In this document: piece by piece, positions 5,530-23,483 of the stretch | Layout of the letters: each line of letters begins with the position of its first letter | Numbering within the stretch: the stretch's first letter is position 1 | Assembly (NCBI GenBank): GCA_031264975.1 | Contig: JAISDH010000369.1 | Coordinates: 1 to 33,946, forward strand | Source: Bacteroidales bacterium | GTDB lineage: Bacteria > Bacteroidota > Bacteroidia > Bacteroidales > WCHB1-69 | Length of the DNA stretch: 33,946 nt | Reading direction: 5' to 3' | Translations under genes and position numbers: made by a program | The notes under the pieces: model-generated | Told to the model about the DNA's origin: nothing | Seen by the model: only the letters and a program-made list of their open reading frames with translations | Database searches by the model: none

Positions 5530-5530
5530 C

Positions 5531-6378: not shown

Positions 6379-6384
6379 AAAAAA

Positions 6385-6822
6385 TCAAAATATTGTGACC
6401 GGCCTTTCTGCAAGCCACACTTCAAAATCCTTCTTGTATTTGTTAAAATGCTCCAAAAGAATATTATCTATGTATGCGCCTACGGCTACTTTATTATCGA
6501 AAATACGGGCGATAACACGCTCGGCAATACATAATGTTTCCTTGCTAATTCCAACGTTGCTTCTATAGACTCCGTTAATAGTTCTACTTAAAAACCTTTC
6601 CTCATACATATTTTTTTTCCCATTCCCTCCATTTCCGTTACTATGAATTTCCTTTGAGGGAAATGGCTGATTTGTGTTCTTTTCTTTTTCAGGAAATTCA
6701 ACAGGATTTTCTGTAGTAGTAACCGCATCTGGCATTGCTTCTATTTTCTCAGTTTGCTTTTGAAAACTACCAGCCATACGTGCTAAAACTTCTGCCTCAC
6801 TCAGTTGATTTTTTTTAGCCAT
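6385..6822 (-). CDS. DUF3408-type conjugal transfer protein (TraB/TraC position)
   Basis: 145 aa. The C-terminal block YEERFL...VGISKETLCIAERVIARIF...YIDNILLEHFNKYKKDFEVW matches the DUF3408 pattern from memory. It lies between traA and traD. Confidence 0.6.
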   Translation of the reverse strand: MAKKNQLSEAEVLARMAGSFQKQTEKIEAMPDAVTTTENPVEFPEKEKNTNQPFPSKEIHSNGNGGNGKKNMYEERFLSRTINGVYRSNVGISKETLCIAERVIARIFDNKVAVGAYIDNILLEHFNKYKKDFEVWLAERPVTIF

Positions 6823-6844
6823 AAATCCATAAATACTTTAGTTT

Positions 6845-7597
6845 TCACTTGTTTATTATCTCGAATATTTCATTACATAAATAGCCGACATGGCTACTGG
6901 AAAGCATGGAGCGGGTAGGTGCAAGTAAAGTTGAACGAAAAATCCCTTCCTGAGAATAATCGGCAGCTTCCTTATGGAACCGCAATAAGTAAGGTATCTT
7001 AGTTTCAAGAACCGGAATTTTATATTCCAATAGCAACTTATTGTATGCGTTATACAAGTTCGTTTTCTCTCGACCATCCACCATATTCCAAAACGCATAT
7101 GATTTCACCTCACTGGAAAGTTGCTTAAGCATCAGAAGAAAACTTAAGGAACTTTCCATTACAGTCCTGTCTGCCGAAATAGGCGTGAAGATATAATCCA
7201 TTTGTTGAATCAGGCTCAAAATGCCAGGCTGATTAACTGTCCCTGGAAGGTCGAAAAATACGTAATCCAATTTATTTTGTCCAGCAGTGATTTTTTCAGC
7301 CATTTCTATCGCTGCAGTTGTAGTAGCAGTTTCAACGGCATAAGATGATTTATTATGTTCTGAAAATTTTGTCACTGCAAGTTTTTTTAATGTTTCGTTT
7401 TTAGGAAGGTTTTCCAGCTCCCGTTTCCGCATGTTTGCAATGGATAACTGCGGGTAGTCGCAATCAATGATTGCAGCATCACATTTTAACACATAATGGG
7501 CGATACTTGCCACAAGTATGGTGAAGCTTGATTTGCCCGCTCCGCCTTTCTGCGTTGCGAAAGAGATATAGACAGGCTTTTTGTTTTTATTACTCAT
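6845..7597 (-). CDS. traA: ParA/MinD-like ATPase TraA
   Basis: 250 aa with a deviant Walker A, FATQKGGAGKSS. It is the first gene of the tra operon and diverges from the mob genes. Confidence 0.85.
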   Translation of the reverse strand: MSNKNKKPVYISFATQKGGAGKSSFTILVASIAHYVLKCDAAIIDCDYPQLSIANMRKRELENLPKNETLKKLAVTKFSEHNKSSYAVETATTTAAIEMAEKITAGQNKLDYVFFDLPGTVNQPGILSLIQQMDYIFTPISADRTVMESSLSFLLMLKQLSSEVKSYAFWNMVDGREKTNLYNAYNKLLLEYKIPVLETKIPYLLRFHKEAADYSQEGIFRSTLLAPTRSMLSSSHVGYLCNEIFEIINK

Positions 7598-8033
7598 AAA
7601 TGAGGTTTATTCGATTAATATTTCCGCAAAGATAATAATTAAGTTTGATATATACAAACACAATATCATCTACTTGTATAATATATTATGTGTTGTGATA
7701 TTTAAAATATTAATAATTAAATATTTATTATATAAACAGAAAATAAAATTACGTATTTTTATAAAATAATAAATTAATTTTATATACCTTTGCATAAAAA
7801 TAAAAATTATGCACTTATTTTATCATTTATTCTTTAAATTTTTAAATTATGAAAAATTTTAAATTGTACTACGAAAAGGAGAACTTCTCAAGAAGTTTGC
7901 AAGGTATGTTTTTGTAGTACAACGTTCCGTTTGTCCTACAAAAACCCTTGCTCTGCGAGGCTGAAAATTTACTCCGAAGTCGTAAATTTTGACTAATAAA
8001 ATGGATGATTTTTGAAAAAAATAATACTTTTTT
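7598..8033. promoter_or_regulatory. Divergent traA/mobA control region, candidate oriT
   Basis: 436-bp non-coding, very AT-rich gap between the divergent tra and mob operons. In CTnDOT-type elements oriT lies next to the mob genes. It contains the nested inverted repeats listed separately. Confidence 0.55.
7864..7945. repeat. Nested/alternative inverted repeats (candidate oriT core)
   Basis: TTGTACTACGAAAA (7864-7877) pairs with TTTTTGTAGTACAA (7909-7922) with one G:T mismatch. Inside it is an inner perfect hairpin, AACTTCT-CA-AGAAGTT (7882-7897). GTTTTTGTAG (7908-7917) can alternatively pair with CTACAAAAAC (7936-7945). Confidence 0.6.
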
Positions 8034-8417
8034 ATGGCATTACATAGAAAATACAGTATCCGCTTTACGGAAAAGGAAAGCATCGAATTAGATTACTTAT
8101 TGAACAAATATAACTTCAAGAAAGTGTCTTCATTTATAAAAAAATGCATTTTTCAGAAGGAACTTCATGTGATTACCTATGATGAAAGTTTATATGACGT
8201 CATTGACAAACTCAATGAAATTTTATACCAATATCGAAAAATCGGTACAAATTACAATCAAATAGTGAAGCATGTCAACAAGACTTTTGGTGAAGAAAAA
8301 GGCAAACAATTATTGAGTAGGGTGGCGCAAAACATGATTGACCTTGTGCAAATCACAGAAAAAACGGTCGTACCAGTAGTAAAAATGTTGGAGGGAAAAT
8401 ATGATAGCAAAAATTAG
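8034..8417 (+). CDS. mobA: MobC-family relaxosome accessory protein (Bacteroides MobA)
   Basis: 127 aa. The motif YRKIGTNYNQIVKHVN is the MobC-family signature (IGxNxNQIA). It overlaps the relaxase gene by 17 nt. Confidence 0.8.
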   Translation: MALHRKYSIRFTEKESIELDYLLNKYNFKKVSSFIKKCIFQKELHVITYDESLYDVIDKLNEILYQYRKIGTNYNQIVKHVNKTFGEEKGKQLLSRVAQNMIDLVQITEKTVVPVVKMLEGKYDSKN

Positions 8418-9558
8418 CACCAGCGATAGTCCGAGAGGTGCTCTTATTTATAATTGTGAGAAAGTAGAAGAAGGACACGCAAAAATTTTATGTACAAATA
8501 AACTTTGGCAAAAAGAGGACACTATTGCCGCCAATCAATTTGCTCGAGTACTTGAAAAGAAAGCTGCAATCAATAAAAATACCAAAAATGCATTTGTTCA
8601 CATATCTTTAAATCCTAGTCCTGAAGACAATTTAACCGATGAACAGTTAAGTGAAATAGCTCAAGAATACATGCAAAAAATAGGCTATGGGGAACAGCCC
8701 TATATTATATTCAAACATGAGGATATTGACCGACATCATTTGCATATTGTAACAACAAATATAGATTCACAAGGCAAAAAAATTACAAACGAGATAGAAA
8801 AGAAATACAACCTGCATCCGGCAGATATGAAGAAAGATTTAAAAATATGGGCGCCGGGTAAAATAGACCCCACTAAAAATGTATCAAGCCAAATTCGATA
8901 TACCGTAAAACACTTAATAAAAAACTATAATTTTCAATCGTTTAACGAATTTAAAACATTGCTATCATTATACAACGTGGATGCGCAGGAATTGAAAGGT
9001 GAAGCGAACAGAACGCCTTATAGTGGAATAGTCTATTTTGCCACGGACGACGAAAAAAAAAGATTGGCTAATCCTGTTAAGTCATCCATACTTGGCAAAT
9101 TTGCTGGAGTGGCTAACCTCTCTAAAAAATATGCCAGTTCTTTTCCATTATTAAAAGCATCATCCGAACAGCTAAAGAATACACTTTCCAATGCAATGAA
9201 AATGGCAAGCACAGAAAATGACCTTACGGTCATCTTAAAGAGGCGTGGCATTGATTTAATTTTACGAAAAAATGACAATGGGCGCATATATGGAGTAACC
9301 GTAATTGACCACAACTCAAAATCGGTAATGAACGGGTCCCGTTTAGGTAAAGAATTTTCTGCAAATCGTTTCCAGGAATTGTTCTCAGTGCCGGACAATG
9401 CTCAAAAAACCACATCAGAAAAGACAGTAGTTTTAGAACAACCGATATTTTCTTTCATCTCAGACAATGTGTCTGTCAGTTTAATGCCCCGGTTTGCAGG
9501 TAGCGGGCCATTTGTCCCTAAGAAGAAGAAAAAAAGGAAAAAAAGGATGATAACATAA
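8401..9558 (+). CDS. mobB: Relaxase/mobilisation nuclease (Bacteroides MobB)
   Basis: 385 aa. The N-terminus is MIAKISTS...ALIYNCEKV, followed by HISLNPSPED and the His-cluster DRHHLHIVTTNID typical of relaxases. It has a strongly basic C-terminal tail, KKKKKRKKRMIT. Confidence 0.85.
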   Translation: MIAKISTSDSPRGALIYNCEKVEEGHAKILCTNKLWQKEDTIAANQFARVLEKKAAINKNTKNAFVHISLNPSPEDNLTDEQLSEIAQEYMQKIGYGEQPYIIFKHEDIDRHHLHIVTTNIDSQGKKITNEIEKKYNLHPADMKKDLKIWAPGKIDPTKNVSSQIRYTVKHLIKNYNFQSFNEFKTLLSLYNVDAQELKGEANRTPYSGIVYFATDDEKKRLANPVKSSILGKFAGVANLSKKYASSFPLLKASSEQLKNTLSNAMKMASTENDLTVILKRRGIDLILRKNDNGRIYGVTVIDHNSKSVMNGSRLGKEFSANRFQELFSVPDNAQKTTSEKTVVLEQPIFSFISDNVSVSLMPRFAGSGPFVPKKKKKRKKRMIT

Positions 9559-9571
9559 AAAGCAAAAAAAA

Positions 9572-10099
9572 ATGAGAATAACTTTACTAGAAGAAGAATA
9601 TGAAACTGTGAGGGTGGGCAATTTAGAGATATTAAATAAGAATATCTACAGTCCAGATATAGCCGTTGAATACGATGGTAACTGCTATTTTGACTTTATA
9701 GGCGTTAAGGTAATTAGCGAACTTTTAGAAGGACAAGATACAAAATTTCGTGTACCTACAGATGATGACTTTGAATATCTTTACAACCTTGGCAGTCGAT
9801 GGGTGGAACAAGGAGAAGTGGGTAATAATCTTGCCGGGCGGTTTTTTGGGAAAAAGGCAAACATTGCAACAATGGACGATTTAAAAAACTGTATATTCTT
9901 GCCAGCGACAGGCTACTGTGACCCTCTTGCTGCGCTCGTCAGCCAAAATAACACTGCCTACTATTGGAGTAGTACGTGCTATAACAGTAGTAGTAGATAC
10001 GTCCAATGCTTCAATAATAACCTCGTGTATTCGTGGAACTACTACCACAAGGGCGACGGATTTTCCGTGCGTTGTGTTCGAGATGCTTATGGCTCATGA
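9572..10099 (+). CDS. FISUMP-type (Fibrobacter succinogenes major paralogous) domain protein, no signal peptide
   Basis: 175 aa. The blocks TVRVGNLEILNKNI, FRVPTDDDFEYL, IFLPATGY, YYWSST and GFSVRCVRD match the TIGR02145-type domain as I remember it. The N-terminus MRITLLEEEYE is not a signal or lipoprotein sequence. Confidence 0.55.
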   Translation: MRITLLEEEYETVRVGNLEILNKNIYSPDIAVEYDGNCYFDFIGVKVISELLEGQDTKFRVPTDDDFEYLYNLGSRWVEQGEVGNNLAGRFFGKKANIATMDDLKNCIFLPATGYCDPLAALVSQNNTAYYWSSTCYNSSSRYVQCFNNNLVYSWNYYHKGDGFSVRCVRDAYGS

Positions 10100-10191
10100 A
10101 ACAAAAGAGAAAGAACATTGAGAATACCATGGCGCCGACAGCCGTTCCTACGGCTTCTCTGTATGTTTAATTAAAAACTTAAAAATAAATC

Positions 10192-12204
10192 ATGAACATA
10201 GAAGATGAAAAATTATTAGGAAAAATCCTGAATTTTATACGGATGGGAAGTGTTTTGCTACTAGCTATGCACTGCTACTGGTTTTGCCACAAGTTATTTG
10301 TAACATTCGGGCTATATCATTCGTTTGTGGACAATATATTTGTTAAACTCCAAAACTCATCCGGTGTATTTGATGATTTGTGGATAACAAAAGTGTTATG
10401 TGTCCTGTTATTATTTGTTAGTTGTATAGGTAATAAAGGGAAAAAAAATGAAAAGATAGAAATCAACACCATCGCTTTTAGAGCGATACTTGGAGCAATA
10501 TTCTTCTTTTTCAATTTCTTAGTATTTAAATTAACCGGAGTATCCATTATGAAATACAGCATTTATTGTATTGCATTGATAACAGGGTATATATTGCTTC
10601 TTTCCGCTGCAATGTTAATTTCCAGACTCATCAAACACAATTTGATGAAAGATGTATTTAATGCTGAAAATGAGAGTTTTATGCAAGAGCAGAAATTGAT
10701 GGTTAATGAGTACTCTGTGAATATACCCACAAAGTTCTATTATCACTCACGTTGGCATAATGGATGGATAAATGTTGTAAATCCTTTTCGTGCAAGCTTT
10801 GTATTAGGAACTCCAGGTTCCGGCAAATCATTTGCCGTCATAAATAATTACATCAAACAACAAATTGAAAAAGGATTTGCTCTGTACATTTATGACTATA
10901 AATTCCCAGATTTGACTGAAATTGCATATAACCATTTACGTCTAAATTCGCAGGGTTATAAAAATGGCGTTACGCCTAAATTCTATATTATCAATTTTGA
11001 CGATCCGAGAAAAAGCCACCGGTGCAACCCCATACATCCGACATTCATGACGGATATCTCTGACGCTTACGAAAGCGCCCATGTCATCATGTTAAATCTC
11101 AATAAAACATGGATACAGAAACAAGGCGATTTCTTTGTGGAATCGCCAATTATCCTGTTGGCAGCTATTTTTTGGTATCTGAAAATTTATCAAAATGGGA
11201 AATACTGTACCTTCCCACACGCAATAGAATTTCTGAACAAAAAATATGCAGACATCTTTACCATTTTAACCTCATATCATGATTTGGAAAACTACCTGTC
11301 ACCGTTTATGGACGCATGGGAAGGTGGAGCGCAAGACCAATTACAAGGACAAATCGCATCTGCCAAAATTCCTCTTTCAAGAATGATTTCGAAACAACTT
11401 TACTGGGTAATGACAGGCGATGATTTTACACTTGACATAAATAATCCCCAAGAACCGAAGATTCTTTGTGTAGGAAACAATCCCGACCGTCAAAATATTT
11501 ACTCTGCAGCACTGGGCTTATACAATAGCCGTATTGTAAAATTAATCAATAAAAAAGGGCAACTCAAAAGTGGCGTTTTAATTGATGAGTTGCCGACTAT
11601 TTATTTTCGCGGATTGGATAACCTGATTGCCACAGCACGAAGTAATAAAGTGGCTGTTTGCCTCGGTTTTCAGGACTATTCACAACTTACACGCGATTAT
11701 GGCGACAAAGAAAGCAAGGTGATACAAAATACTGTTGGGAACGTTTTCTCCGGGCAAGTTGTTGGTGACACTGCCAAAAACTTGTCTGAAAGGTTTGGGA
11801 AAATTCTTCAACAAAGACAATCAATCAACATTAACCGACAAGACACAAGCACCTCTATAAGCACCCAAATGGATAGCCTTATTCCGGCAAGTAAAATAGC
11901 AGGTCTTTCACAAGGTATGTTTGTTGGGGCCGTTACCGATAATTTCGGAGAAGAAATAGAGCAAAAAATATTTCATGCAAAAATTCTTGTAGATGTAGAA
12001 CGGGTAAAAGCTGATGAAAAACGATATGTGAAATTACCCATTATAACATCATTTGTGGATGATACAGGAATTGACAGGTTAGATGAAATGATAGATAAAA
12101 ATTATGAGCAAATTAAAATTGATGTTACAAATATCGTAAATTCAGAATTGAATAGAATTGCGAATGACCCCAGCTTGTCGCATTTGATTGAAAAACAACA
12201 GTAA
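10192..12204 (+). CDS. mobC: Type IV coupling protein (TraG/TraD family; Bacteroides MobC)
   Basis: 670 aa with N-terminal TM helices. Walker A is GTPGSGKS and Walker B-like is VLIDELP. It is the last gene of the mob operon. Confidence 0.85.
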   Translation: MNIEDEKLLGKILNFIRMGSVLLLAMHCYWFCHKLFVTFGLYHSFVDNIFVKLQNSSGVFDDLWITKVLCVLLLFVSCIGNKGKKNEKIEINTIAFRAILGAIFFFFNFLVFKLTGVSIMKYSIYCIALITGYILLLSAAMLISRLIKHNLMKDVFNAENESFMQEQKLMVNEYSVNIPTKFYYHSRWHNGWINVVNPFRASFVLGTPGSGKSFAVINNYIKQQIEKGFALYIYDYKFPDLTEIAYNHLRLNSQGYKNGVTPKFYIINFDDPRKSHRCNPIHPTFMTDISDAYESAHVIMLNLNKTWIQKQGDFFVESPIILLAAIFWYLKIYQNGKYCTFPHAIEFLNKKYADIFTILTSYHDLENYLSPFMDAWEGGAQDQLQGQIASAKIPLSRMISKQLYWVMTGDDFTLDINNPQEPKILCVGNNPDRQNIYSAALGLYNSRIVKLINKKGQLKSGVLIDELPTIYFRGLDNLIATARSNKVAVCLGFQDYSQLTRDYGDKESKVIQNTVGNVFSGQVVGDTAKNLSERFGKILQQRQSININRQDTSTSISTQMDSLIPASKIAGLSQGMFVGAVTDNFGEEIEQKIFHAKILVDVERVKADEKRYVKLPIITSFVDDTGIDRLDEMIDKNYEQIKIDVTNIVNSELNRIANDPSLSHLIEKQQ

Positions 12205-12233
12205 TTAGAACGTCGAATAGAAATCAATCCGAA

Positions 12234-12267
12234 ATCACAAAATATTATAAGATTTTGTGATGTTTTT
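12234..12267 (+). terminator. Rho-independent terminator of the mob operon
   Basis: ATCACAAAAT (12234-12243), an 8-nt loop, then ATTTTGTGAT (12252-12261). This is a perfect 10-bp stem followed by GTTTTT, 30 nt after the mobC stop. Confidence 0.7.
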
Positions 12268-12284
12268 CATATTTATAAATTAAA

Positions 12285-12312
12285 AATTATTAATATTATA
12301 ATATTAATAATT
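12285..12312. repeat. Perfect 28-bp A/T-only palindrome
   Basis: AATTATTAATATTA|TAATATTAATAATT is a perfect reverse complement about its centre. It sits in a tract (12271-12415) where I count four G and no C. Confidence 0.9.
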
Positions 12313-12389
12313 AATATATTAATATGAATTTATGATTTTAATGAATAAAATATTATATTAATTATAATAAAATATAAATAATATATTAT

Positions 12390-12397
12390 TATATTTG
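12390..12397 (+). promoter_or_regulatory. Bacteroidetes -7 promoter box (TAnnTTTG) for the 12416 operon
   Basis: TATATTTG lies 19 nt upstream of the ATG at 12416 and downstream of the mob terminator. Confidence 0.45.
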
Positions 12398-12415
12398 TAA
12401 AAAAATATAATAATT

Positions 12416-13555
12416 ATGGAAAACAACATAAAAAAAGAAAACAATCCTAAAAAAGAAAAAAAGGAATCAAAACAAACGATAGCGGAAGCACTATTTGGCG
12501 TTACTGTCGATGAACGCGACGGATTAATCAATAACGCGTATCGAAATTTCATGGAGAAATATCATCGTGAGCCCAGAATTCCGATAGACAAATTCAAAAA
12601 GATGTGGGCAGATTTTGAAAAACTCGGACTTACTATGCTTAAATTGCAACAAGCCGAAGCCATGCCACAGCTTATTGACGGTAAAACTACTGAAAAAGTT
12701 TTACCAATCACGATAGAAGTGGCTGGAGCCAGAATAGACACAGAGGGAAAAATTGTTTTGCATAAAAATAAAGACGGTGAAGTTTCTTTGAAATTATATC
12801 CAATAAAAAACGAACCGAATTTAAAAGAGTATTTCGGACATGTTTTTACGAACGAAGAGCGTGAAAATATTCTAAAAACAGGCTCGCCGGGCACAGTAGT
12901 TTATGCTGAGTTTAATAAGGAAGAAGGTAAAGTGCCGGTTCTTTTAACACTGGACAGAGATACTAATCATTTTGTTGCACAACGAAAAGAATACATTAAA
13001 ATTCCTGACACATTCTTCCAAGTAAAATTGTCGGAAGAACAAAAACAACAATTGAGCGAGGGGAAGATTGTCAGAATAGAAGGTATGAAATCACTTGAAA
13101 AACAGAAAGCCTTTTCCACAAATGTGGTATATAACGCTCAAAGAAGAGGGCTTGAATTACTGTTTGAAAATCAAGCAAAGAAACTTTTTCCGCCAAAAAA
13201 AATATCGAATATGGAACTAACCGAACAGCAGCAAGACGCTTTGAAAGGAGGTAAGAGCATATTTGTGGAAAATTTGACAGATAAACAAGGACGAAAGTAC
13301 GATGCTTATATAACGTGGAATAATAAGAATGGGATGCTGAATTTTTCATCAAAAAATCCGAATGATGATACTATAAAGAAAACTGTAACACCTGAACACA
13401 AAGTTCAGGTGGCTGCTAACAACGATGGCCATAAACCGGAAGCCCTGAAGAATGTAAAAGGAGCTGTAGAAAAGAAACAGCCTGATACCCCAACGGCAAA
13501 ACAAAAGCAAGAAAAAACTGCTATAACTCCGAAGAAAAAAGGCATGAAAATGTAA
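12416..13555 (+). CDS. DUF4099/DUF3945-type conjugative-element protein
   Basis: 379 aa. It has repeated modules of the form [hT-EQ..L..GK.I.h....K.GK.Y.A.h], namely VKLSEEQKQQLSEGKIVRIEG... and MELTEQQQDALKGGKSIFVENLTDKQGRKYDAYITW. The N- and C-termini are Lys-rich and the tail is TPKKKGMKM. Confidence 0.6.
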   Translation: MENNIKKENNPKKEKKESKQTIAEALFGVTVDERDGLINNAYRNFMEKYHREPRIPIDKFKKMWADFEKLGLTMLKLQQAEAMPQLIDGKTTEKVLPITIEVAGARIDTEGKIVLHKNKDGEVSLKLYPIKNEPNLKEYFGHVFTNEERENILKTGSPGTVVYAEFNKEEGKVPVLLTLDRDTNHFVAQRKEYIKIPDTFFQVKLSEEQKQQLSEGKIVRIEGMKSLEKQKAFSTNVVYNAQRRGLELLFENQAKKLFPPKKISNMELTEQQQDALKGGKSIFVENLTDKQGRKYDAYITWNNKNGMLNFSSKNPNDDTIKKTVTPEHKVQVAANNDGHKPEALKNVKGAVEKKQPDTPTAKQKQEKTAITPKKKGMKM

Positions 13556-13622
13556 TAAATTCAAATAGAGAAAACGGCCGGAAAGAATAACACATTGAAA
13601 TTATAGAGCATCATAATGCAAG

Positions 13623-14282
13623 ATGGATGGAGTAAGCAATATAGAAATAATAAATTCCCGATTCAACGACGAGTTGCAACGGCAAATTGCCGGAATGCTA
13701 CCGAAGGTACATACTTACCAATTAGGAAATGCCGGAGATATTTTGCAGTCGGCATCAATTCCAAACCTTCCCGTCGAACTACAGGCATCGCGCCTTAGTG
13801 ACAAGTCCATGCAGGAAAACCATCCGTTTGATTTATCGGAGATAAAGGATTTACCTAAAGCAATTCAAAATCCCATGGCCGTACTTCGTAGTGCCACCCA
13901 TATTGGAAGCTATGTGATTATGACTGAAATTGAGCACGAGGGGAAGAATTACGTAGTCGCGTTACAAGCTAATAAAAGAAAAGGAAGTATTGAAATAAAC
14001 GATATAAGAAGTGTCCACTATCGTCGGACAAATGCTCATATAGCCAATTGGATTGATGAAGGATTATTGGAATATGCTGATAAGAAAAAATTAACCGGTT
14101 GGATTAACAAACAGCGGTACAATTCCGCTGAGGTTACTAATTCAACCGGTAATCTATTTAAACATGCAGCAAAGATAATAGAAAATTTTGAAAATCCAAA
14201 ATTATTGGATACAAATTTACATCATTCTGCTGAAAACTCTTTAAATAAAAAAAAATATGGTAATTTTAAACAAAAATGGTGA
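13623..14282 (+). CDS. Hypothetical protein, possibly a polyvalent-protein-associated (MuF-C/PBECR-like) domain
   Basis: 219 aa. The block HPFDLSEIKDLPKAIQNPMAVLRSATHIGSYVIMTEIEHEGKNYVVALQ...INDIRSVHYR resembles domains found at the ends of phage/ICE polyvalent proteins. This call is from memory only. Its 3' end overlaps the next gene by 26 nt across an A9 run. Confidence 0.45.
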   Translation: MDGVSNIEIINSRFNDELQRQIAGMLPKVHTYQLGNAGDILQSASIPNLPVELQASRLSDKSMQENHPFDLSEIKDLPKAIQNPMAVLRSATHIGSYVIMTEIEHEGKNYVVALQANKRKGSIEINDIRSVHYRRTNAHIANWIDEGLLEYADKKKLTGWINKQRYNSAEVTNSTGNLFKHAAKIIENFENPKLLDTNLHHSAENSLNKKKYGNFKQKW

Positions 14283-15126
14283 GCGTGAAGTCATCGTTCC
14301 CAGTGACCCCAAAACGTCTCTTGAAACACTTACGGTGTTGGCAAAAGATGAAGACGTGGCCGTTCGTCGGGCTGTGGCTGAAAATCCCAATGCACTGGCG
14401 GAAACGCTTGCGACATTGGCAAAAGATAAAGAAGGATTGGTGCGCATGCGTGTTGCTGAAAATCCCAATGCACTGGCGGAAACGCTTGCGACATTGGCAA
14501 AAGACAAAGATGTGGACGTTCGCCGGACTGTTGCCGAAAATCACCATACGCCGGCTAAAATGCTTGCAACACTGGCAAAGGACAAAGAGGTGGGCGTTCG
14601 CCAGGGTGTCGCGAATAATCCAAGTACACCAGCTAAAATGCTTGCAACACTGGCAAAAGACAAAATGAATAATGTCCGTGCGGCTGTTGCTAAAAATCCT
14701 ATGACACCAGTTGATGCACTTATTGCATTAGCAAAAGACGAAGATTCGGACATTCGATGGGCAGTCACTAAAAACCCCTATGCTTTTCCTGAGTTGCTTG
14801 CAATATTGGCAAAAGATAAAGATTTAGGTGTCCGTGTATCTGCTACTCGTTCTGATAATTTTGTACCACCTCACATCCCATCCAAGATTGGAAATGTCGA
14901 AATAACTGCTGAGCAACGCTTGGCATTACAAGAAGGAAAAGGGATTGAGATAAAAGGAATAAAAGATAAAGCAGGGAAATTATATGATACCACTTACGTT
15001 ATTATTGAACAAAAGACAAATAAAATCAAATTACTACAGCAACAGGATAAAAATAAATTTCAAAAAGCACAAATTAAGTCTGCTGCTAAAATTGCTCCGA
15101 TAAAAAGAAAAGGAATAAAAATATAA
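14257..15126 (+). CDS. LRV/HEAT-like repeat protein with DUF3945-like C-terminal module (paralog A)
   Basis: 289 aa. Seven 26-aa units have the consensus NPNxxxExLAxLAKDxDxxVRxxVAx. They are followed by IGNVEITAEQRLALQEGKGIEIKGIKDKAGKLYDTTYVII and the tail APIKRKGIKI. Confidence 0.8.
   Translation: MVILNKNGEREVIVPSDPKTSLETLTVLAKDEDVAVRRAVAENPNALAETLATLAKDKEGLVRMRVAENPNALAETLATLAKDKDVDVRRTVAENHHTPAKMLATLAKDKEVGVRQGVANNPSTPAKMLATLAKDKMNNVRAAVAKNPMTPVDALIALAKDEDSDIRWAVTKNPYAFPELLAILAKDKDLGVRVSATRSDNFVPPHIPSKIGNVEITAEQRLALQEGKGIEIKGIKDKAGKLYDTTYVIIEQKTNKIKLLQQQDKNKFQKAQIKSAAKIAPIKRKGIKI
14305..14850 (+). repeat. In-frame 78-bp tandem repeat array (7 units)
   Basis: The period was measured directly: AATCCCAATGCACTGGCGG occurs at 14383 and 14461, and the next unit starts at 14539. 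Units are 60-100% identical. Confidence 0.9.
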
Positions 15127-15143
15127 TCAATTCAAATAATATT

Positions 15144-16040
15144 ATGAGAAAAAACATGGAGAATATAGAAAATTTGCCTGCTGAAATGCTTATGACGTTG
15201 GCAAAAGATGAAGACGTGGCCGTTCGTCGGGCTGTGGCTGAAAATCCCAATGCACTGGCGGAAACGCTTGCGACATTGGCAAAAGATGAAGATGGGCGTG
15301 TTCGCACGCACGTTGCTAAAAATCTCAACACATCGGTGGAAGCACTTGCAACGTTGGCAAAAGATGAAGATTGGGAGATTCGCATGCACGTTGCCGGTAA
15401 TTCCAATGCACCGGTTGACATACTTGCCGCATTAGCAGAAAACAAAGAGGGATTGGTGCGCATGCGTGTTGCTGAAAATCCCAATGCACTGGCGAAAACG
15501 CTTGCGACATTGGCAAAAGATGAAAATTGGCGTGTTCGCACGCACGTTGCTGAAAATCTCAACACACCGGTGGAAGCACTTGCAACGTTGGCAAAAGATA
15601 AAGATCCGAATATTCGAAAGAGTGTTGCTGGACATCTTAATACATCTATTGATGTACTTGCAGAATTGGCAAAAGACAAAGAGGCGATGGTACGCATAGC
15701 TATTGCTAGAAATCCCAATGCACCGGCGGCAACGCTTGCGACATTGGCAAAAGATGAAGATCAGGATGTTCGCATGCGTGCGGAAACACTTGCAAAAATC
15801 CCATCCAAGATTGGAAATGTTGAAATAACCGCAGAGCAACGCTTGGCATTACAAGAAGGAAAAGGTATTGAGATAAAAGGAATAAAAGATAAAGCAGGGA
15901 AAGCGTATGACACCACTTACGTTATTATTGACCAAAAGACAAAAAAAATCAAATTACTGCAACAACAGGATAAAAAGAAATTTCAAATTAAGTCTGTTGC
16001 TAAAATTGCTCCGATAAAAAGAAAAGGAATAAAAATATAA
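15144..16040 (+). CDS. LRV/HEAT-like repeat protein with DUF3945-like C-terminal module (paralog B)
   Basis: 298 aa with about eight 26-aa units. The C-terminal 80 aa are nearly identical to paralog A and the tail is the same, APIKRKGIKI. Confidence 0.8.
   Translation: MRKNMENIENLPAEMLMTLAKDEDVAVRRAVAENPNALAETLATLAKDEDGRVRTHVAKNLNTSVEALATLAKDEDWEIRMHVAGNSNAPVDILAALAENKEGLVRMRVAENPNALAKTLATLAKDENWRVRTHVAENLNTPVEALATLAKDKDPNIRKSVAGHLNTSIDVLAELAKDKEAMVRIAIARNPNAPAATLATLAKDEDQDVRMRAETLAKIPSKIGNVEITAEQRLALQEGKGIEIKGIKDKAGKAYDTTYVIIDQKTKKIKLLQQQDKKKFQIKSVAKIAPIKRKGIKI
15174..15782 (+). repeat. In-frame 78-bp tandem repeat array with a 234-bp higher-order duplication
   Basis: The block starting at 15237 recurs at 15471, an offset of 234 = 3 x 78. 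I count about six mismatches over the first ~135 nt. Confidence 0.85.
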
Positions 16041-16085
16041 TTCCATAATTCCACTACGTACGGTTACAAGATTTATTGAGGAAAA

Positions 16086-19000
16086 ATGGCATACTCTAAA
16101 AAACATCAACTGCAACAAAATGTTGAAGTAATAAAACAATTATTGTTGCTCGAAATTCTAAAACAAAAAGCTATTCCTGAGCAACTTGATTTATTTAAAC
16201 GTTTCTCCGGGTTCGGAGCGCTAAAATGTATTTTATTACCGACAGAAAAGGAAGAAGACAAACAGCACTGGCCGAAATCAGAACTTGAACTATTTCCTTT
16301 GGCTCAAGAACTACACCGTGTTCTTGCAACACATGAACTACAAGGGGCGGGGGACTACAAGCGTTATATGGATAGTATTAAAAACTCCGTACTCACAGCG
16401 TTTTACACATCATCGGAGATAGTGCAATCTATTGCGACTTCACTGTCCGCAGCGGGCATACAGGCAACAAACATTCTTGACCCCTCCGCAGGTGCTACCG
16501 GGCAGTTTGTCCAGGACTTCAAAGCAGTTTTTCCGCAAAGTAATATTGTAGGCTATGAGAAAGACCTTATTTCAGGGAAAATTTTGCAACATCTATACTC
16601 CAATGAGAAAATACACATAGCAGGCTTTGAAACTATCCCGGGGGGGAGTAATGACCGTTTCGATATTGTCGCTTCTAACATCCCCTTTGGGGATATTTCT
16701 GTGCCTGATACTGCGTTTCATTTGAGTAAGGAGCCCACTCGGCAACTGGCTGCCCGGCATATTCATAATTATTTCTTTCTTAAAGGTATAGATACTTTGC
16801 ACGAGGGTGGGATACTGGCTTTTATTACTTCACAGGGTGTGGCTGACGCTCCGGCGAACAAGCCCATCCGGGAGTGGCTGATGAGCAAAGCTAACCTCGT
16901 TTCGGCAATACGGTTACCCAATAACTTGTTTTTGGAAAATGCCGGCACGGAAGTCGGGAGCGACCTGATTATTTTACAGAAAAACTCCCGCAAAGCGCAG
17001 CTTTCGGATAATGAAAAACAGTTTATAGAAACAGGACAAACCAAAGCGGGGATTGGCATTAATAAGTATATTTATAACCGGGCAAATTTAATTTTTACTG
17101 ATACTAAAATCGGAACAGACCCCTACGGCAAGCCTGCCGTTATTTTGACCCATAGCGGTGGCGTTCCCGGTATCGCCGCAGATTTGAAGAAAAACCTTAT
17201 TCGTGATTTTTCGGGAAAATTGGATATTAGCCTGTACCAGCAACATGCATCCGTTAATGTCAATCAACCACAACCAAAGCAACAGGCGCCATCATCAGAG
17301 CCAATATTGACGCTCTATGACCTGTTCGGGTTCTCGACCCCATCTGCGCAGCAGGCAATTTTGCCGAAGCCACCCGAACAGGCGGCAGACCCCAAACCAC
17401 AATCGCAAAAATATACCGGAAAAATTGCGGGATACCATAAACCCGGCGCCCTGGTCAAAAATGACCGGTCGGAAGTGGGAGTATTAAGTACGGATGCAGA
17501 CAATAATTTTATCTTTACTCCGCTACTATTGCAGGAAAACAGGGACAAAATCGCACACTACATTGACGTCCGTGATGCTTACTATAGCTTGTATTCTACC
17601 GAACAGATTACACAAACTGAAAATCAAAGCGGGCGTGAGCGCCTGAACCAACTTTATGATGAATTTATTGCACGCTATGGTGTGCTCAATAGCAAGGAGA
17701 ATCGCACACTTGTTGATATGGATGCCAACCGTGTCGAGATGCTTGCTGTCGAGCGTTTGAAAGATGAGCATTACGTTAAAACTGATATTTTTCACAGACC
17801 GGTTGCATTTGCGCAGCACGTTGAAATTGCCACACCCGAAGAAGCCTTGCTCGCCTCGCTTGACAGATACGGTGAAGTACGGCTTGACTTTATTAGCAAA
17901 GAGGTTAACATTTCTGAAGAGGAAGCGTTCCGGCAGCTTGAGAACAAAATTTACTATAATCCGCTCAGTAAGGCAAATTACGAAATTGCTGCTAAATTTC
18001 TATCGGGCAATATCGTAGAAAAAATTGACGCATTTTCCGATTTTGTACGACGGAATGGCGAGAGCGAACAACTCGCAAATTCCATCGCTGCTTTGCAGAA
18101 GGTTATTCCCGAAAAAATTCCGTTTGAATTATTAGAGTTCAACTTCGGGGAGCGTTGGATACCGGGGAAAGTATACAACGAATTTGCAACTCATTTGTTC
18201 CAAACTGAAACGGAGGTGCGATACTATACAGCATCCGATGAATTTGTAGTAAAAGTACAAGGTCATGCTACGGCAGAAATTTACAACAAGTATAACATCC
18301 GTACAGAGGCTCGCAATTATAACGGCATAAAATTAATGCAATATGCATTGCATAATACCACGCCCAATGTGACGAAAACCGTTGAAATTAATGGCGAGGA
18401 ACACAAGGTGCGCGACACACAAGCAATACAGCGTATAAATGCAAAAACTGAAGAAATTCGCAATGAATTTACCAAATGGCTGAATCAACAACCGCAGGCA
18501 TTCAAGGATGAAATTACGGATTTGTATAATCGAAAATTTAACAGTTTTGTAAAAGCGACGTATGATGGCACGCATCAAACCCTGCCCGGTTTATCCTTTG
18601 AAAAGTTCAAGTACAAATCCCTTTATGATAGCCAAAAAAATGCCGTTTGGATGCTCAAACAAAACGGCGGTGGCATTATAGACCACGAAGTGGGCGGTGG
18701 GAAAACAATGATTATGTGCTGTGCTGCTCATGAAATGAAGCGGCTCGGCTTAGCCAACCGCCCGATGATTATCGGGCTCAAGGCCAACATACAGGCGATT
18801 GCTGAAACCTACCGGGACGCCTACCCTGACGCTAAAATTCTGTATCCGGGCAAAGGTGATTTCACAGTGAACAACCGGGAAAAATTTATCAATAAAATAA
18901 AAAACAACGATTGGGACTGTGTTATCCTGACGCATGAACAATTCGGGAACATTCCGCAGTCGCTGAAGGTGCAAAAGAGCATTTTAAACGAAGAACTTGA

Positions 19001-21815
19001 TGCTGCGGAAGAAAATTTATCAATAGCCCAAGGTGAAGACGGTGCAAGCAAAGCCCAGTTACGCGGATTAGAACGGCGCAAGGCTTCGATAGAAACACGC
19101 CTTGCGGTCGTAAATGAAAAAATAAACATCAAAAAAGACAATGTGCCGGATTTTGAGGAATTGGGTATTGACCATATTTTTGTTGATGAAAGCCACCAGT
19201 TCAAAAACCTGACGTTTGCAACCCGGCATAACCAGGTTGCCGGGTTAGGCAACCCGACCGGCAGCGGGCGGGCGTTGAATTTACTTTATGCTATCCGCAC
19301 TATTCAAAATCGCACAGGCAAGGATTTGGGCGCCACATTTCTGTCGGGAACTACTATCAGTAACTCTTTAACCGAGTTATATCTCATTTTTAAATATTTA
19401 CGTCCAAAAGCCTTGGCAGAGCAGAGTGTTCACTCTTTTGATGCTTGGGCGGCCGTGTATGCTAAGAAAACTACCGACTACGAATTTTCTGTAACTAACC
19501 AAATCGTCCAAAAAGACCGCTTCCGGCACTTTATCAAGGTGCCCGAACTTGCCGCTTTTTATTCCGAAATTACCGACTTTAAAACGGCTGCGGATATAGG
19601 TGTTGAACGACCGGAAAAAAACGAAATCCTTTACAACATTCCACCCACGCCGGAACAGGAACAATTCACCAAAAAATTAGTGCAATTCGCCAAGACAGGC
19701 GATGCTACCATACTTGGCCGAGAACCGCTCTCGGAGAGCGAGGAAATGGCCAAAATGCTGTTGGCGACCAATTATGCTCGCAAAATGTCGCTTGACATGC
19801 GGCTAATAAGCCCTGCATACGAAGACCATGTGGATAACAAACTATCTCATTGTGCCAATAAAATTTTTGAGTACTACAAGAAGTTCGACACACAAAAGGG
19901 GACACAATTCATATTCTCCGATTTAGGCACGTATAAAAGTGGAGAGTGGAATGTTTATGATGAGCTAAGACATAAATTAATCGACAAGGGGATTCTTGAA
20001 AAAGAAATAAAATTTGTCCACGAAGCCACGACAGACAAGAAGCGGGATGAGATGTTTCAGGCAATGAATGACGGCAAAATTCGTGTGCTTATAGGCTCCA
20101 CTCAAAAACTGGGAACAGGGGTAAATGCCCAGGAGCGTGCTGTAGCCGTTCATCACCTTGACACGCCCTGGCGCCCATCCGACCTTGAGCAGCGCACAGG
20201 CCGTGCCGTCCGTACCGGCAATAAAGTTGCCAAGCAATTTAACGACAATAAAGTGGATGTGTATATCTATGCTACCGAGCGTACGTTAGACACTTATAAA
20301 TTCAATTTATTACAAAATAAACAGACATTTATTTCCCAAATAAAAAACAATAAATTAGGTTGCCGTAGCATTGACGAAGGCAGCATTGATGAAGCTTCCG
20401 GGATGAATTTCGCAGAGTATGTTGCAATCCTGTCAGGTGACACCAATTTGTTAGAAAAAGCTAAATTAGAGAAGAAAGTTACTGTTTTGGAGAGTGAAAG
20501 AACGATGTTTTATAACGATCGTTATAAAACATCCAAGCAAATAGAGGAAATCAATGGAAAAATAGAAGAAAATAATACCATTATTTCCCGTTTAAAAAGC
20601 GATTTAAAAGCTTTTCAGGAGCAACAGCGTAAATTTCCGAATATATTGCCAAATATTGAACCAGGGGGAGAGGGCAGCAACTTGGAACATATTGCCAAAC
20701 AATTACACATTATCAGGGAAACAGCAAAGACGAAGGGCAGTTATCAGCCCATCGGAACACTGGGCGAGTTCACCTTGCTTGTAAAAACAGAAGCATCAAT
20801 GAAGGAGGGTTTTGAATTTGTAGAAAACCGTTTTTTTGTTGAGCATCCACAGAGCAAAATTAAATATTCATATAATCATGGCATTCTTGCCCAAGATGCC
20901 GAAAAAGCTTGTGCAAATTTTATCAATGCCCTGAATCGCATTCCCGAAACTATAGAAGACTATGAACATAGAAATGATGATTTAATAAAACCGCTACCGG
21001 TGCTACAGGAAATGGTAAGTAAAGAATGGACGAAGGAGGAGGAACTTCGGGAGTTGAAAGGTAAATTGTCGGGGCTGGATGTTACCCTTCAGGGTGTTGT
21101 GGAGCAGGAGCATCCTTCCGGCGACCACGAGGCTGCCCTCTCTCAATCCACTCAAGATTACAAAGCGCCAGAAATCGCTGCTGCGGATCCCGAAACATCT
21201 GTTGAAGTATTAGCGGAACTGGCAAAAAATAAAGATTGGCATATTCGCGAAAGTGTCGCAAAAAATCCCAATACATCGGTGGAAACGCTTGCTACATTGG
21301 CAAAAGATGAAAATTCGGAAGTGCGGGCGGCGGTGGCCGGAAATCCCAATACACCAGGAGAAACGCTAGAACTACTGGCAAAGGACGAACGAGGGTTTGT
21401 TCGTAATAGTGTTGCCGGTAATCCTAAAACACCGACTGAAGTGCTGAAACTGCTGGCAAAAGATGAAGGTGTGCCTATTCGCGATAATATTGCCAAAAAT
21501 CCTAACACTCCTGTTGAAACTCTTACAGAGCTGGCAAAGGATAAAAATGTATTTGTTCGCATATATGTTGCCGACAACCCCAACACACTGCCGAAAATAT
21601 TGGCTGAGTTGGCAAAGGATAAAGATGAGCGAGTTCGCAAAGATGCACAGTATAACATTCAGAAACAAGGACTTGATTTGGGACATCCCGAGATTAAGGC
21701 ATCGGGAAAAATAGAGCCGAAAAAAGCCCCATCGCCGGCATTGGCATCGGCCATCAAACGGCAACCGGTAGCAGGGAAAACGGCCGGAAAGAGAGTGGGA
21801 AAGATAATGCACTGA
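16086..21815 (+). CDS. Fused N6-adenine DNA methyltransferase + SNF2/DEAD-type helicase (P1 DarB-like) with C-terminal LRV-like array
   Basis: 1909 aa.
- **MTase motifs:** FYTSSEIV; motif [13 protein letters not shown] (from nt 16473); motif IV NIPFG (nt 16677).
- **Helicase motifs:** motif I GGGKTM (~18689); DExH as VDESHQFKN (~19185); motif [13 protein letters not shown] (~20189).
- **C-terminal part:** a coiled-coil region, then six LRV-like units, then the basic tail [10 protein letters not shown]. Confidence 0.88.
21186..21656 (+). repeat. In-frame 78-bp repeat array (about 6 units) at the 3' end of the methylase-helicase gene
   Basis: The translated units are [61 protein letters not shown]... 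They have the same consensus as the two upstream paralogs and are visibly related at DNA level, for example AATCCCAATACATCGGTGGAAACGCTTGCTACATTGGCAAAAGATGAA. Confidence 0.85.
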
Positions 21816-22121: not shown

Positions 22122-22619
22122 ATGGAAACGAAAAACTTCACCACAGTTGCCGAAGTTGCGCAAAAAATAGGGTTAAATAATCTTGCACTTAGGCTATTAG
22201 AATATCTCAACCAATATCATCCGGATTTAGCCTTGGATTATGACTTTATTATGGGACGAGCCGGCTATGCCGCCACCGTCCGGGATGATATGATAAGGAG
22301 CAGTGATGGGAATCCGGCGTTGCAACAGAAGGCTGAAAGCGAATGTAATCGCGTCCTGATGGCCGACCTTGAGTTTTCCGAACATTCCATTATTTTTGGA
22401 ATTATAGATGAATACTATTATGAGCAGGGTCGCACGAAGAAACCCGCGGAAGTGAAAGGCCTGGCTATAGAACTGCGGCCGCATTTAAAGAATATTTTTG
22501 CGAAATATCCTACCGATAATCCCGAATTTACGGCAGAGGTGGAGTATGACGAAATGGTCGAGGAACTGCAAGAAGAAATAGAAAAATTGTTGCAGAAAAG
22601 AGATGAGTTGCCGTTTTGA
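22122..22619 (+). CDS. DUF1896-type protein
   Basis: 165 aa. The pattern LRLLEYLNQYHPDLALDYDFIMGRAGYAA...ECNRVLMADLEFSEHSIIFGIIDEYY resembles the DUF1896 family. In Bacteroides CTns that family usually precedes a topoisomerase gene, and none is present here. Confidence 0.55.
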   Translation: METKNFTTVAEVAQKIGLNNLALRLLEYLNQYHPDLALDYDFIMGRAGYAATVRDDMIRSSDGNPALQQKAESECNRVLMADLEFSEHSIIFGIIDEYYYEQGRTKKPAEVKGLAIELRPHLKNIFAKYPTDNPEFTAEVEYDEMVEELQEEIEKLLQKRDELPF

Positions 22620-22655: not shown

Positions 22656-23483
22656 ATGATAGAACAGCAAATTGAGAAAACGATTAAAGAATATAAAGCG
22701 CTTAATCTTGATGAAGTAATTGATTACGAAAAACACAAATTGTATTCAATCGTAGCAAATTCAACAGCCCTTGAGGGATCTACGCTCACAGAAGTTGACA
22801 CTCAATTATTGTTGGATGAAGGTATCACGGCCAACGGAAAACCGCTTGAACACCACTTGATGGTGAAAGATAATCACGAAGCAATGAACCAGGCACTACA
22901 GTTGGCTAATCAAAAAACGCCCATAACGCCAGGACTCTTACAGACAATTAATGGATTAAATATGAAGAATACGGGCGAAATTGTTCATTCTGCACTGGGC
23001 ACTGTAGATGGGACAAAGGGAGAATTTCGAAAGGTTCAGGCACTCTCGCAATATCTCGGCTATTATCTTGCCCCAACAAAAATTGATGCTGCCGTGGATG
23101 CATTTTGCGCCGAAGCCCAACAATACATGCAGGCAAATCATTTTCCTTCCGAAGCGTTAAAATTTAGTTTTGCGGCACAGGCAAAATTAATAATGATACA
23201 CCCCTGGCAAGATGGCAACAAACGCACATCCCGGATTATATCAAATTATGTACAGCAATATTTTGGATTACCTTTAGGTAAAGTAGATAAATCTGACGGG
23301 CGGGAGTACCTCGAAAACCTGAAGATTTTTAAGGAAACCGGGAATATAGAACCATTCACCAAATTTATGTCGGAAAAGTATATAGAATTGCTTCAAAAGG
23401 AAATTTGCCAAAATAAGGAAAACCTAAATTGGGATATGCCGAAAGACATCACTCCTCGAAAAGTCAGTAAGTTAAAATTATAA
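22656..23483 (+). CDS. Fic/Doc-family protein
   Basis: 275 aa. The active-site motif is HPWQDGNKRTSR, of the form HxFx(D/E)GN(G/K)RxxR. An upstream STALEG fits the (S/T)xxxE(G/N) inhibitory-helix motif. Confidence 0.85.
   Translation: MIEQQIEKTIKEYKALNLDEVIDYEKHKLYSIVANSTALEGSTLTEVDTQLLLDEGITANGKPLEHHLMVKDNHEAMNQALQLANQKTPITPGLLQTINGLNMKNTGEIVHSALGTVDGTKGEFRKVQALSQYLGYYLAPTKIDAAVDAFCAEAQQYMQANHFPSEALKFSFAAQAKLIMIHPWQDGNKRTSRIISNYVQQYFGLPLGKVDKSDGREYLENLKIFKETGNIEPFTKFMSEKYIELLQKEICQNKENLNWDMPKDITPRKVSKLKL

Follow-up and report, generated by a model that had tools for sequence, protein, structure and literature searches.

Organization of the window and the C-termini of its proteins

The DNA analysed here, hereafter the window, is a 33,946-nucleotide stretch of a Bacteroidales bacterium (contig JAISDH010000369.1, assembly GCA_031264975.1). 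It is part of a CTnDOT-type (MPF_B) conjugative element of Bacteroidota, and we describe a short tail of basic and hydrophobic residues with which several proteins of this element end. By Pfam searches we found a TraG/VirB4 ATPase with DUF3875 and P-loop_TraG, TraJ, DUF4134/DUF4133 TraE/TraF-like proteins and a ParA-like TraA, which together characterise a CTnDOT-type type IV secretion system (T4SS), with the same gene set present in the relatives L081 and L087; the nearest relatives of the window are Prevotellaceae and other Bacteroidales metagenome bins. The part of the T4SS operon in the window lies on the minus strand at 99–7597 and encodes a TraK-like protein, TraJ, DUF4134, the TraG/VirB4 ATPase, DUF4133, another DUF4134, an unknown protein, DUF3408 and the ParA-like TraA (Pfam: P-loop_TraG, 2e-207, DUF3875, CtnDOT_TraJ, DUF4133, DUF4134, DUF3408 and CbiA/MipZ). 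Between it and the divergent mob operon, the map of open reading frames (ORFs) leaves an AT-rich gap at 7598–8033 (GC content ~0.32–0.34), which we take to be the oriT region from its position, by analogy with CTn341/CTnDOT. The mob operon, on the plus strand, has the three components expected by Pfam: a MobC_2 relaxosome accessory protein (8034–8417; MobC_2, 1.7e-27), a MobA/VirD2-type relaxase (8401–9558; Relaxase, 2.3e-24) and a type IV coupling protein composed of a YWFCY N-terminal domain and a TraG/VirD4 ATPase (10192–12204; YWFCY, 1.1e-38, TraG-D_C and T4SS-DNA_transf).

Downstream on the plus strand follow the genes whose products drew attention to the tail. The first (12416–13555; Pfam) encodes a protein with DUF4099, two DUF3945 and Toprim_Crpt domains, which ends in ...TPKKKGMKM (KKKGMKM at 13532–13552). 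Behind a MuF_C ORF (13623–14282; Pfam MuF_C, 4.8e-26), which as read ends in ...NFKQKW and has no tail, come LRV-A (14257–15126; Pfam LRV, 3.5e-25, DUF3945, 4.5e-6), consisting of LRV/HEAT repeats, a DUF3945-like module, a linker and the tail, and its tandem paralogue LRV-B (15144–16040; Pfam) with the same module, linker and tail; both end in ...APIKRKGIKI (KRKGIKI at 15103–15123 and 16017–16037, respectively). The last is a protein of 1909 amino acids (16086–21815; Pfam) that unites an N6-adenine methyltransferase, an SNF2-type helicase and LRV repeats, hereafter the methyltransferase-helicase, and ends in the degenerate tail KRVGKIMH (21789–21812). The relaxase ends in the polybasic run ...KKKKKRKKRMIT (codons 9520–9555). 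A previous sequence-only reading of this DNA had quoted five C-termini, those of the relaxase, the DUF3945 protein, LRV-A, LRV-B and the methyltransferase-helicase; all five were confirmed in the translated ORFs, and the domain labels were also right according to Pfam. Its statement that the four tail carriers behind the relaxase are consecutive does not strictly hold, as the MuF_C ORF stands between the DUF3945 protein and LRV-A. Two further candidates came to light in the window on the plus strand, a Fic protein (22656–23483; Pfam) ending in ...PRKVSKLKL (23460–23480), an ambiguous possible carrier, and a primase with a CHC2 zinc finger and a Toprim domain (29013–29960; Pfam) ending in ...VTPKIKLS (29937–29957). 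In the T4SS operon of 99–7597, neither the C-termini nor the matrix scores introduced below gave a match to the tail in any protein; the accessory protein (...KYDSKN) and the coupling protein have no tail.

The MuF_C ORF shares 26 nt with LRV-A, which is read in another frame, and frame analysis showed that dropping one A from the A9 run at 14247–14255 fuses the former into the latter (...NKKNMVILNKNGE...). The two ORFs are thus probably one gene, encoding MuF_C, LRV, DUF3945-like module and tail, that is broken at the A9 run; a sequencing error, phase variation and programmed slippage are all conceivable causes of the frameshift. LRV-A and LRV-B, near-identical over their last ~85 amino acids, are evidently recent duplicates, and because of this near-identity their tails were treated as one observation.

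A motif at the free C-terminus of unrelated proteins

The tail has the consensus [KR]-[KR]-G-(hydrophobic or R)-[KR]-(M/I/L/V/F)-COOH at the free C-terminus. It was scored in 80 Bacteroidota genome loci around methyltransferase-helicase orthologues, in which ORFs were called de novo and clustered, and in a second, independent data set of 80 metagenome loci around primases. Counts were dereplicated, and the other ORFs of at least 150 amino acids served as controls (624 in the first set and 391 in the second). Two scores were used: the regular expression [KR]-G-(hydrophobic or R)-[KR]-hydrophobic-COOH, and a position weight matrix (PWM), which prefers G at −4 (3.2 bits), M/V at −3, K/R at −2 and M/I/L/V at −1 and whose cut was set at the 99th percentile of control ORFs.

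The regular expression matched 18 of 61 methyltransferase-helicases and 21 of 46 DUF4099-DUF3945 proteins, 29 of 68 element-borne primases and 8 of 15 MobV relaxases, against 1/624 and 0/391 of the other ORFs; no match was found among 35 topoisomerases (topoisomerase III), 21 coupling proteins and 42 DUF1896 proteins, and inside proteins the five-residue motif occurs at 8e-5 per residue. In the first data set before dereplication, the ending G-hydrophobic-[KR]-hydrophobic was present in 24/66 methyltransferase-helicases and 10/50 DUF3945 proteins compared to 2/1117 control ORFs (Fisher p ~4e-36), where both control matches are the LRV proteins of the window itself. With the PWM, 33 of the 61 dereplicated methyltransferase-helicases exceeded the cut. 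When the matrix was trained on one of these two families and tested on the other, the areas under the receiver operating characteristic curve were 0.96 and 0.79 (p = 1e-28 and 6e-16), with 38/50 and 22/66 proteins over the 99th percentile of controls, and the two-family matrix applied to the second data set recovered 39/68 primases, 9/15 MobV relaxases and 2/3 DUF5712 proteins versus 3/391 other ORFs.

The motif is therefore very specific, whereas a bare basic tail is not special. The sequence-only reading had itself proposed the frequency of comparable tails in other proteins as the yardstick; by that measure a loose description as Lys/Arg-rich fails, because at least three Lys/Arg in the last eight residues, found in 14/14 relaxases and 33/39 topoisomerases, are also common in the controls (226/1117). 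In the window, the tails of the DUF3945 protein and LRV-A lie at PWM percentiles 100 and 99.8. The end of the methyltransferase-helicase (GKIMH) is one residue out of register and fits the consensus only without the last His (percentile 97.9; 99.6 without His), so that of the common ending claimed for four products, those of the DUF3945 protein, LRV-A and LRV-B are canonical and that of the methyltransferase-helicase is degenerate. The relaxase tail reaches percentile 92.5 (99.1 without its last residue), and that of the primase, which is the motif plus one extra residue, 98.6 without the last residue.

These counts also bear on the idea that the tails are alike only by compositional chance and common descent, given that the proteome is AT-rich and Lys-rich and contains duplicated genes. 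Such an origin would suit the 20% of control ORFs that have three or more Lys/Arg in the last eight residues, the recent duplication of LRV-A and LRV-B, and the individually weak matches of the methyltransferase-helicase, Fic, primase and relaxase tails in the window. We nevertheless consider it most improbable, since the strict motif occurs in 0–1 of ~1000 control ORFs of at least 150 amino acids against 30–50% of four unrelated families, a matrix trained on one family recognises the other with an area under the curve of up to 0.96, and the tail is kept as the linkers diverge.

Conservation of the tail and the range of its carriers

Orthologues of the methyltransferase-helicase, ~190 in all, were gathered as the 120 best (50–87% identity) and 74 from the genome loci. 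Their last ~50 amino acids are not alignable between subgroups; the last four to five residues converge all the same (KGFKL, RGIKL, KGVKI, RGMRI, RGVRM, KGLRM, TKIRI, VRPKF/L/M and AQFRV), at times with one extra residue, and the family is a chief carrier of the canonical tail. Orthologues of the DUF3945 protein (n = 22, 34–85% identity) end in KKGMKM, KRKGVRI, TGIKI, KKGRKM, KRMKM or SKLKL, and RGMRM and KGRKM are also among the convergent tails of the two families. Aligning the C-termini of homologues, the check that had been suggested along with the original observation, thus came out in its favour: the tail is kept in orthologues though the adjoining linker diverges.

As judged by comparison of C-termini, the tail recurs in at least five unrelated families, namely the methyltransferase-helicases, the DUF4099-DUF3945 proteins, the LRV proteins, the Toprim primases and the MobV relaxases with the Tn4555 Mob protein, and it was also observed on single MuF_C, PBECR3, DUF4116 and ArdC proteins. 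Examples include an LRV protein of 742 amino acids in L081 (...KKDKGMKI) and an ArdC-N/MPTase protein in L040 (RRGMHR). The Pfam repertoire of these loci is that of polyvalent proteins (MuF_C, PBECR3, ART-PolyVal, LPD3, ArdC-N/MPTase and methyltransferase-helicase). Multidomain arrangements were found in the methyltransferase-helicase with LRV repeats, in an LPD3-ART-PolyVal-DUF3945 protein that adjoins the methyltransferase-helicase in L084, and in the putative MuF_C-LRV fusion; the majority of carriers are ORFs with a single domain.

The closest genome locus, L002 (Bacteroidia bacterium PG1894_199, 3966–24801), has its own variant of the tail, K-N-x-L-K-[LI], on at least six different proteins: a DUF4116 protein, proteins of 201 and 244 amino acids, a Toprim protein (KNTPKL), a PBECR3 nuclease and a MuF_C protein, the last being 69% identical to that of the window and carrying its own tail (...NNNLKI). 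A second PBECR3 protein of this locus ends in ...KKNGKKI, and its methyltransferase-helicase in SILRPKL. We also observed that the likeness of the variant tails (...KPKN[ST]LKL and ...KNNNLKI) reaches ~12 residues upstream, the pattern that would be left if recombination inside the element had spread a tail cassette.

A separate case is the Fic family, in which homologues of 22656–23483 (P0145–P0263 and L089–L091) end in a basic cluster followed by G-F-S-L-[IVF]-[LF], as in KKGFSLIL and RGFSLFF. The family was considered as an independent carrier and was not counted, as its tail is of this longer hydrophobic type and one homologue lies among housekeeping genes; the Fic tail may serve as a related signal or anchor the protein in the membrane.

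Architecture of the tail-bearing proteins

In an AlphaFold2 model of the DUF3945 protein of the window, residues 30–320 form a confident fold and residues 321–379 are disordered, with pLDDT below 50. In both data sets, the hydrophobic fraction of residues −36 to −7 was 0.19 in tail-bearing proteins versus 0.35 in other proteins (p = 7e-51). As a short linear motif, the tail closes a disordered, Lys/Gln/Pro-rich linker of 30–60 residues, a flexible leash, and in its position at the extreme C-terminus of an unstructured region it resembles a T4SS signal.

The sequence-only reading had proposed that the DUF3945-like module just upstream of the tail may be a docking domain for the coupling protein. 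Profile searches (jackhmmer) found this DUF3945/Toprim_Crpt-like module in 50/50 DUF3945 proteins, 39/39 topoisomerases and 1/74 methyltransferase-helicases, so that the topoisomerases have the module without the tail (39/39) and about half of the methyltransferase-helicases the tail without the module. Module and tail occur independently, and the module was accordingly ruled out as a required docking domain. In the AlphaFold2 model the module is beta-rich; a search of the PDB with the model of the DUF3945 protein gave nothing significant (best E = 5.5e-3 with a TM-score of ~0.1; PrgE, E = 0.1).

Carriers were also considered as cargo of the type IX secretion system (T9SS), which calls for an N-terminal Sec signal peptide and a folded C-terminal domain of ~80 amino acids; this was ruled out, as their N-termini are hydrophilic (MENNIKKENNPKK...), their C-terminal region is disordered and only ~5 residues are conserved. 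Because of the hydrophilic N-termini, neither Sec nor T9SS export is in play.

A second conserved linear motif was observed in the disordered C-terminal region of the DUF4099-DUF3945 family, 20–50 residues before the tail (13400–13500 in the window, residues ~328–362; ...TQVAANNDGHKPEALKNVKG..EQKQPNTPT...); the LRV protein of L081 has its ...VEQKQP... part.

Primases and relaxases of mobilizable elements

The primase family of the window was examined in 150 representatives (34–48% identity). About half of them stop at the end of the catalytic domain (...KDLNEFL), and the remainder add a linker of 15–30 residues ending in RSRGLKL, QKRGFRL, RRKGLRM, KNKGIRM, KPKRMKM or KKRGLKM. Conjugation markers did not tell tail-bearing from tailless primases, since the latter also adjoin Tra genes, and the marker set misses many relaxase types. 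As to phage homologues of the primase, the 9 found are all on unannotated faecal 'Bacteriophage sp.' contigs and do not make a clean negative control.

Many of the 80 primase loci are small integrative mobilizable elements, composed of an integrase, a DUF5906/VapE helicase, the primase and a relaxase, in which the gene after the primase encodes a Mob_Pre/MobV relaxase or a DUF5712 protein with the same tail (KDRGMKL, QNRGIKL, KNKGFKL, RSKGFKL, QRKGLKI, TSRGRRM, NRAGFRM and KRRGLRL). The DUF5712 proteins hold the relaxase position after the primase (L097, 11723–12628, NRAGFRM; L102, 11728–12630, KRRGLRL), and they may represent a mobilization or relaxase family that has gone unrecognised.

Annotated Bacteroides plasmid records gave the same picture. 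The mobilization protein of the cfxA (Tn4555-like) element ends in ...ERKSRGFKL; in the pBUN1 element the primase ends in PKKRGLKM and the MobV relaxase in RQNRGMQL; in another annotated element the relaxase ends in KKKKKRLKL and the primase in RQKRGRGI; and the pMMCAT relaxase ends in KRKRGVGF. No similar tail was seen in these records on integrases, excisionases, the helicase, ATPases, regulators, resistance genes including beta-lactamases, HU or SSB.

Relaxases are obligatory T4SS substrates and are recognised by the coupling protein of the helper. The tail thus stands on proven substrates, the MobV relaxases and the Tn4555-like Mob protein, and its presence on Tn4555-like relaxases, given that relaxases are obligatory substrates, is the best argument that it would be a translocation or coupling-protein recognition signal. 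The family to which the relaxase of the conjugative element itself belongs has only a polybasic variant (KKKKRRRKL, KRKRRRKRKL and KKKKKGSRL); the suggestion that the window relaxase ends in the same tail was not supported by comparison, its tail being of a related but distinct type, as these relaxases of integrative and conjugative elements (ICEs) carry a polybasic run, with 0/13 matches to the regular expression and 4/13 over the PWM cut.

The distribution just described also speaks to a different role, in which the tail would be a nucleic-acid- or membrane-binding appendage, a short basic and hydrophobic anchor keeping DNA enzymes on DNA or at the inner membrane, comparable to the Lys-rich tails of some topoisomerases or the membrane-targeting sequence of MinD, with no part in secretion. 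Most carriers are DNA enzymes, topoisomerase III and relaxases also have basic tails, the tail comes after topoisomerase-type Toprim_Crpt/DUF3945 repeats in several proteins, and Fic tails (KKGFSLIL, for example) have the look of small membrane anchors. Yet the DNA-binding topoisomerase III (0/35), integrases, HU, SSB and excisionases are without the G-hydrophobic-K-hydrophobic ending, and the LRV repeat proteins, MuF_C and DUF4116, which are not DNA proteins, carry it. Moreover, DNA binding needs neither a fixed register at the free carboxyl end nor an invariant-like Gly, and a stable membrane anchor would take more than two hydrophobic residues. For these reasons we regard such an appendage as unlikely.

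The tail as a candidate conjugative translocation signal

By sequence comparison, the motif appears to be under selection, portable between unrelated proteins, limited to proteins that belong to conjugative or mobilizable elements, and present on relaxases, and for these reasons we favour a T4SS signal: it is, in our estimation, fairly probable that the tail serves the MPF_B (CTnDOT-type) system for translocation or for recognition by the coupling protein. The wider proposal, that the Bacteroidota MPF_B T4SS uses the five-residue tag as its general export signal and that the tag is common to relaxases, primases and anti-defence or effector proteins of ICEs and mobilizable elements throughout the phylum, we hold to be evenly poised. 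The sequence-only reading had these proteins exported to the recipient through the Bacteroidetes T4SS; comparison bears out a selected and portable C-terminal signal tied to conjugative transfer, and translocation itself stays a prediction.

In the mechanism that we propose, the tail would be the tag by which the MPF_B conjugation apparatus picks proteins for transfer into the recipient, with the YWFCY-TraG coupling protein as its most likely receptor, and the tailed proteins would actually be translocated into the recipient. The predicted cargo would include the relaxases of mobilizable elements, which would travel attached to the DNA and recircularise the strand; primases, which would start the complementary strand in the recipient; and pre-made anti-defence or polyvalent-type enzymes such as the methyltransferase-helicase, the DUF4099-DUF3945 protein, the LRV/MuF_C proteins, the PBECR3 nuclease and ArdC, which would have to do their work while the genes of the incoming single strand cannot yet be expressed. 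In other systems the relaxase operon enters the recipient last; by analogy, the tail-bearing genes may be on the late-entering side, which would make delivery as protein more useful.

Several observations weigh against this reading. About half of the methyltransferase-helicases, including that of the window and its nearest relatives, and about half of the primases have no clear tail. The ICE-type MobA/VirD2 relaxases, the sole certain substrate of the element in the window, mostly bear the different, polybasic tail noted above. The MobV relaxase of a Gram-positive plasmid, Streptococcus pyogenes pRW35 (L175, 554–2056), ends in ...PKRSKGRSI, and this tail type, or part of the motif, may, as its occurrence there suggests, be older than, wider than or independent of the Bacteroidota T4SS. 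The related Fic tail is kept in a chromosomal copy flanked by fucose, PFK and G6PD genes, with no ICE genes nearby. Co-variation of the methyltransferase-helicase and DUF3945 tails within elements is weak (BLOSUM, p = 0.025; identity, not significant); it had been tried as support and was dropped for this reason, leaving L002 as an anecdote. Finally, the carrier families are all element-borne, and genomics alone does not separate an element-specific from a T4SS-specific signal.

Some of these points would be accommodated by a tag for degradation or unfolding that a host AAA+ protease, ClpXP for instance, would recognise and that would keep potentially harmful element enzymes (nucleases, methyltransferase, relaxase and primase) low or remodel their complexes. 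The model for such a tag is the ClpX C-motif 2 of MuA transposase, ...RRKKAI-COOH, which the tail resembles, in pattern only, in having a basic cluster and then a terminal hydrophobic residue on a flexible linker; weak co-variation within elements would fit a conserved host receptor, and the related tail on chromosomal Fic proteins a host-wide reader. A degron would leave unexplained why the carriers are proteins that act on incoming single-stranded DNA and not the integrases, toxin–antitoxin toxins or resistance proteins of the same elements. The strong preference for Gly at −4, and that for Lys/Arg at −2, has no counterpart in the MuA motif, and an element with its own variant on six proteins, as in L002, also speaks against it. 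We consider a degron improbable, if slightly less so than a binding appendage.

Other genes of the window

Between the relaxase and the coupling protein lies a gene for a small Fib_succ_major/Lcl_C-like protein (9572–10099, plus strand), an unusual position, at which L081 carries genes for an N6_N4 methyltransferase and a PAPS reductase together with one unknown gene. Downstream of the methyltransferase-helicase, the plus strand also carries a toxin–antitoxin pair, BRO-N and others. Two paralogous two-gene cassettes, at 23555–24093 (plus strand) and 32074–32600 (minus strand), have matching protein ends (...FLDSL/...GHYNDK and ...FLESL/...GHYNDT), and their counterpart in L084 is annotated as PhdYeFM antitoxin and YoeB toxin; they are probably duplicated addiction modules.

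The gene for DUF1896 (22122–22619) adjoins that for the methyltransferase-helicase, as it almost always does (51 copies in 80 loci). In the lineage of the window (also L002, 22108–22620; L082, 13280–13759; L084, 8921–9418) the protein ends in ...KRDELPF or ...YELPF; this ...ELPF end is reminiscent of the acidic, partner-recruiting SSB tail ...DDDIPF, and DUF1896 proteins of other lineages end in ...EDHELQ.

Relation to known systems and significance

C-termini with a positive charge serve as T4SS signals, many plasmid proteins are moved by F-type systems (PMC11288057, PMC8406263), and cloned positively charged C-termini generally supported Cre transfer (PMC11288057). The tail described here is like these signals in lying at the extreme C-terminus, being net positive and unstructured, occurring on relaxases as well as accessory proteins with a role in the recipient, and having a coupling protein as its presumed reader. 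It differs in being shorter and sharper, with five residues, of which that at −4 is preferably Gly, that at −2 Lys/Arg and the last one hydrophobic, and as a predicted signal it belongs to the phylogenetically separate MPF_B system. The Agrobacterium-type Arg consensus R-x7-R-x-R-x-R does not describe it either; the tails here have 5–7 residues, with Lys at least as frequent as Arg, a fixed Gly and a terminal hydrophobic residue. The Bartonella Bep signal, a BID domain with a positively charged tail that is also found on some alphaproteobacterial relaxases, is similar in being shared by relaxases and effector-like proteins, to which the Fic protein of the window would correspond, and a modular domain often lies directly upstream of the tail here too. 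Unlike the Bep signal, the proteins described here gave no BID match in Pfam, and their upstream DUF3945/Toprim_Crpt module is separable from the tail.

The domains of polyvalent proteins were predicted to enter the new host together with the DNA (Iyer et al. 2017, PMC5512222). The carriers have the same domain repertoire as these proteins and as the DarB-type methyltransferase-helicases of phage P1, with the same predicted logic of delivery with the DNA against recipient defences, but here many of the domains stand as ORFs of their own, each bearing a tail, and are not joined in one giant fusion; neither the term C-terminal tail nor secretion signal is mentioned in PMC5512222. The ClpX C-motif 2 of MuA and the class II PDZ ligands (hydrophobic-x-hydrophobic-COOH) are alike in placing a hydrophobic residue after basic ones at the free carboxyl end; they have other readers and another biology, and would leave unaccounted for the restriction of the tail to relaxases, primases and anti-defence proteins. 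The primases Sog of ColIb-P9 and TraC of RP4 are known to be transported to recipients; Rees and Wilkins 1990 is among the works cited in PMC5512222. They too are primases of transmissible elements needed on the incoming single strand, but differ in primase architecture and in the type of T4SS, and we know of no short C-terminal tag on either.

In the literature searched we found no description of a T4SS signal of Bacteroidota, of DUF3945 function or of the tail, and no protein substrate of a CTnDOT-type T4SS besides the relaxase; the string 'Bacteroid' is absent from a 2025 T4SS review. Positively charged C-terminal T4SS signals as such are already known, and what would be new is the unusual sharpness of this variant, its place in a different T4SS lineage and the unexpected breadth of its predicted cargo.

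In the human gut, resistance and fitness genes travel mainly on conjugative and mobilizable elements of Bacteroidota. If the tail is such a signal, the proteome injected during conjugation of gut Bacteroidales could be read directly from sequence, and it would be explained how a methyltransferase-helicase of 1900 amino acids could guard the DNA before its expression is possible and how mobilizable elements plug into the coupling protein of a helper. It would also offer a handle for blocking transfer, or for protein delivery between gut bacteria or in Bacteroides.

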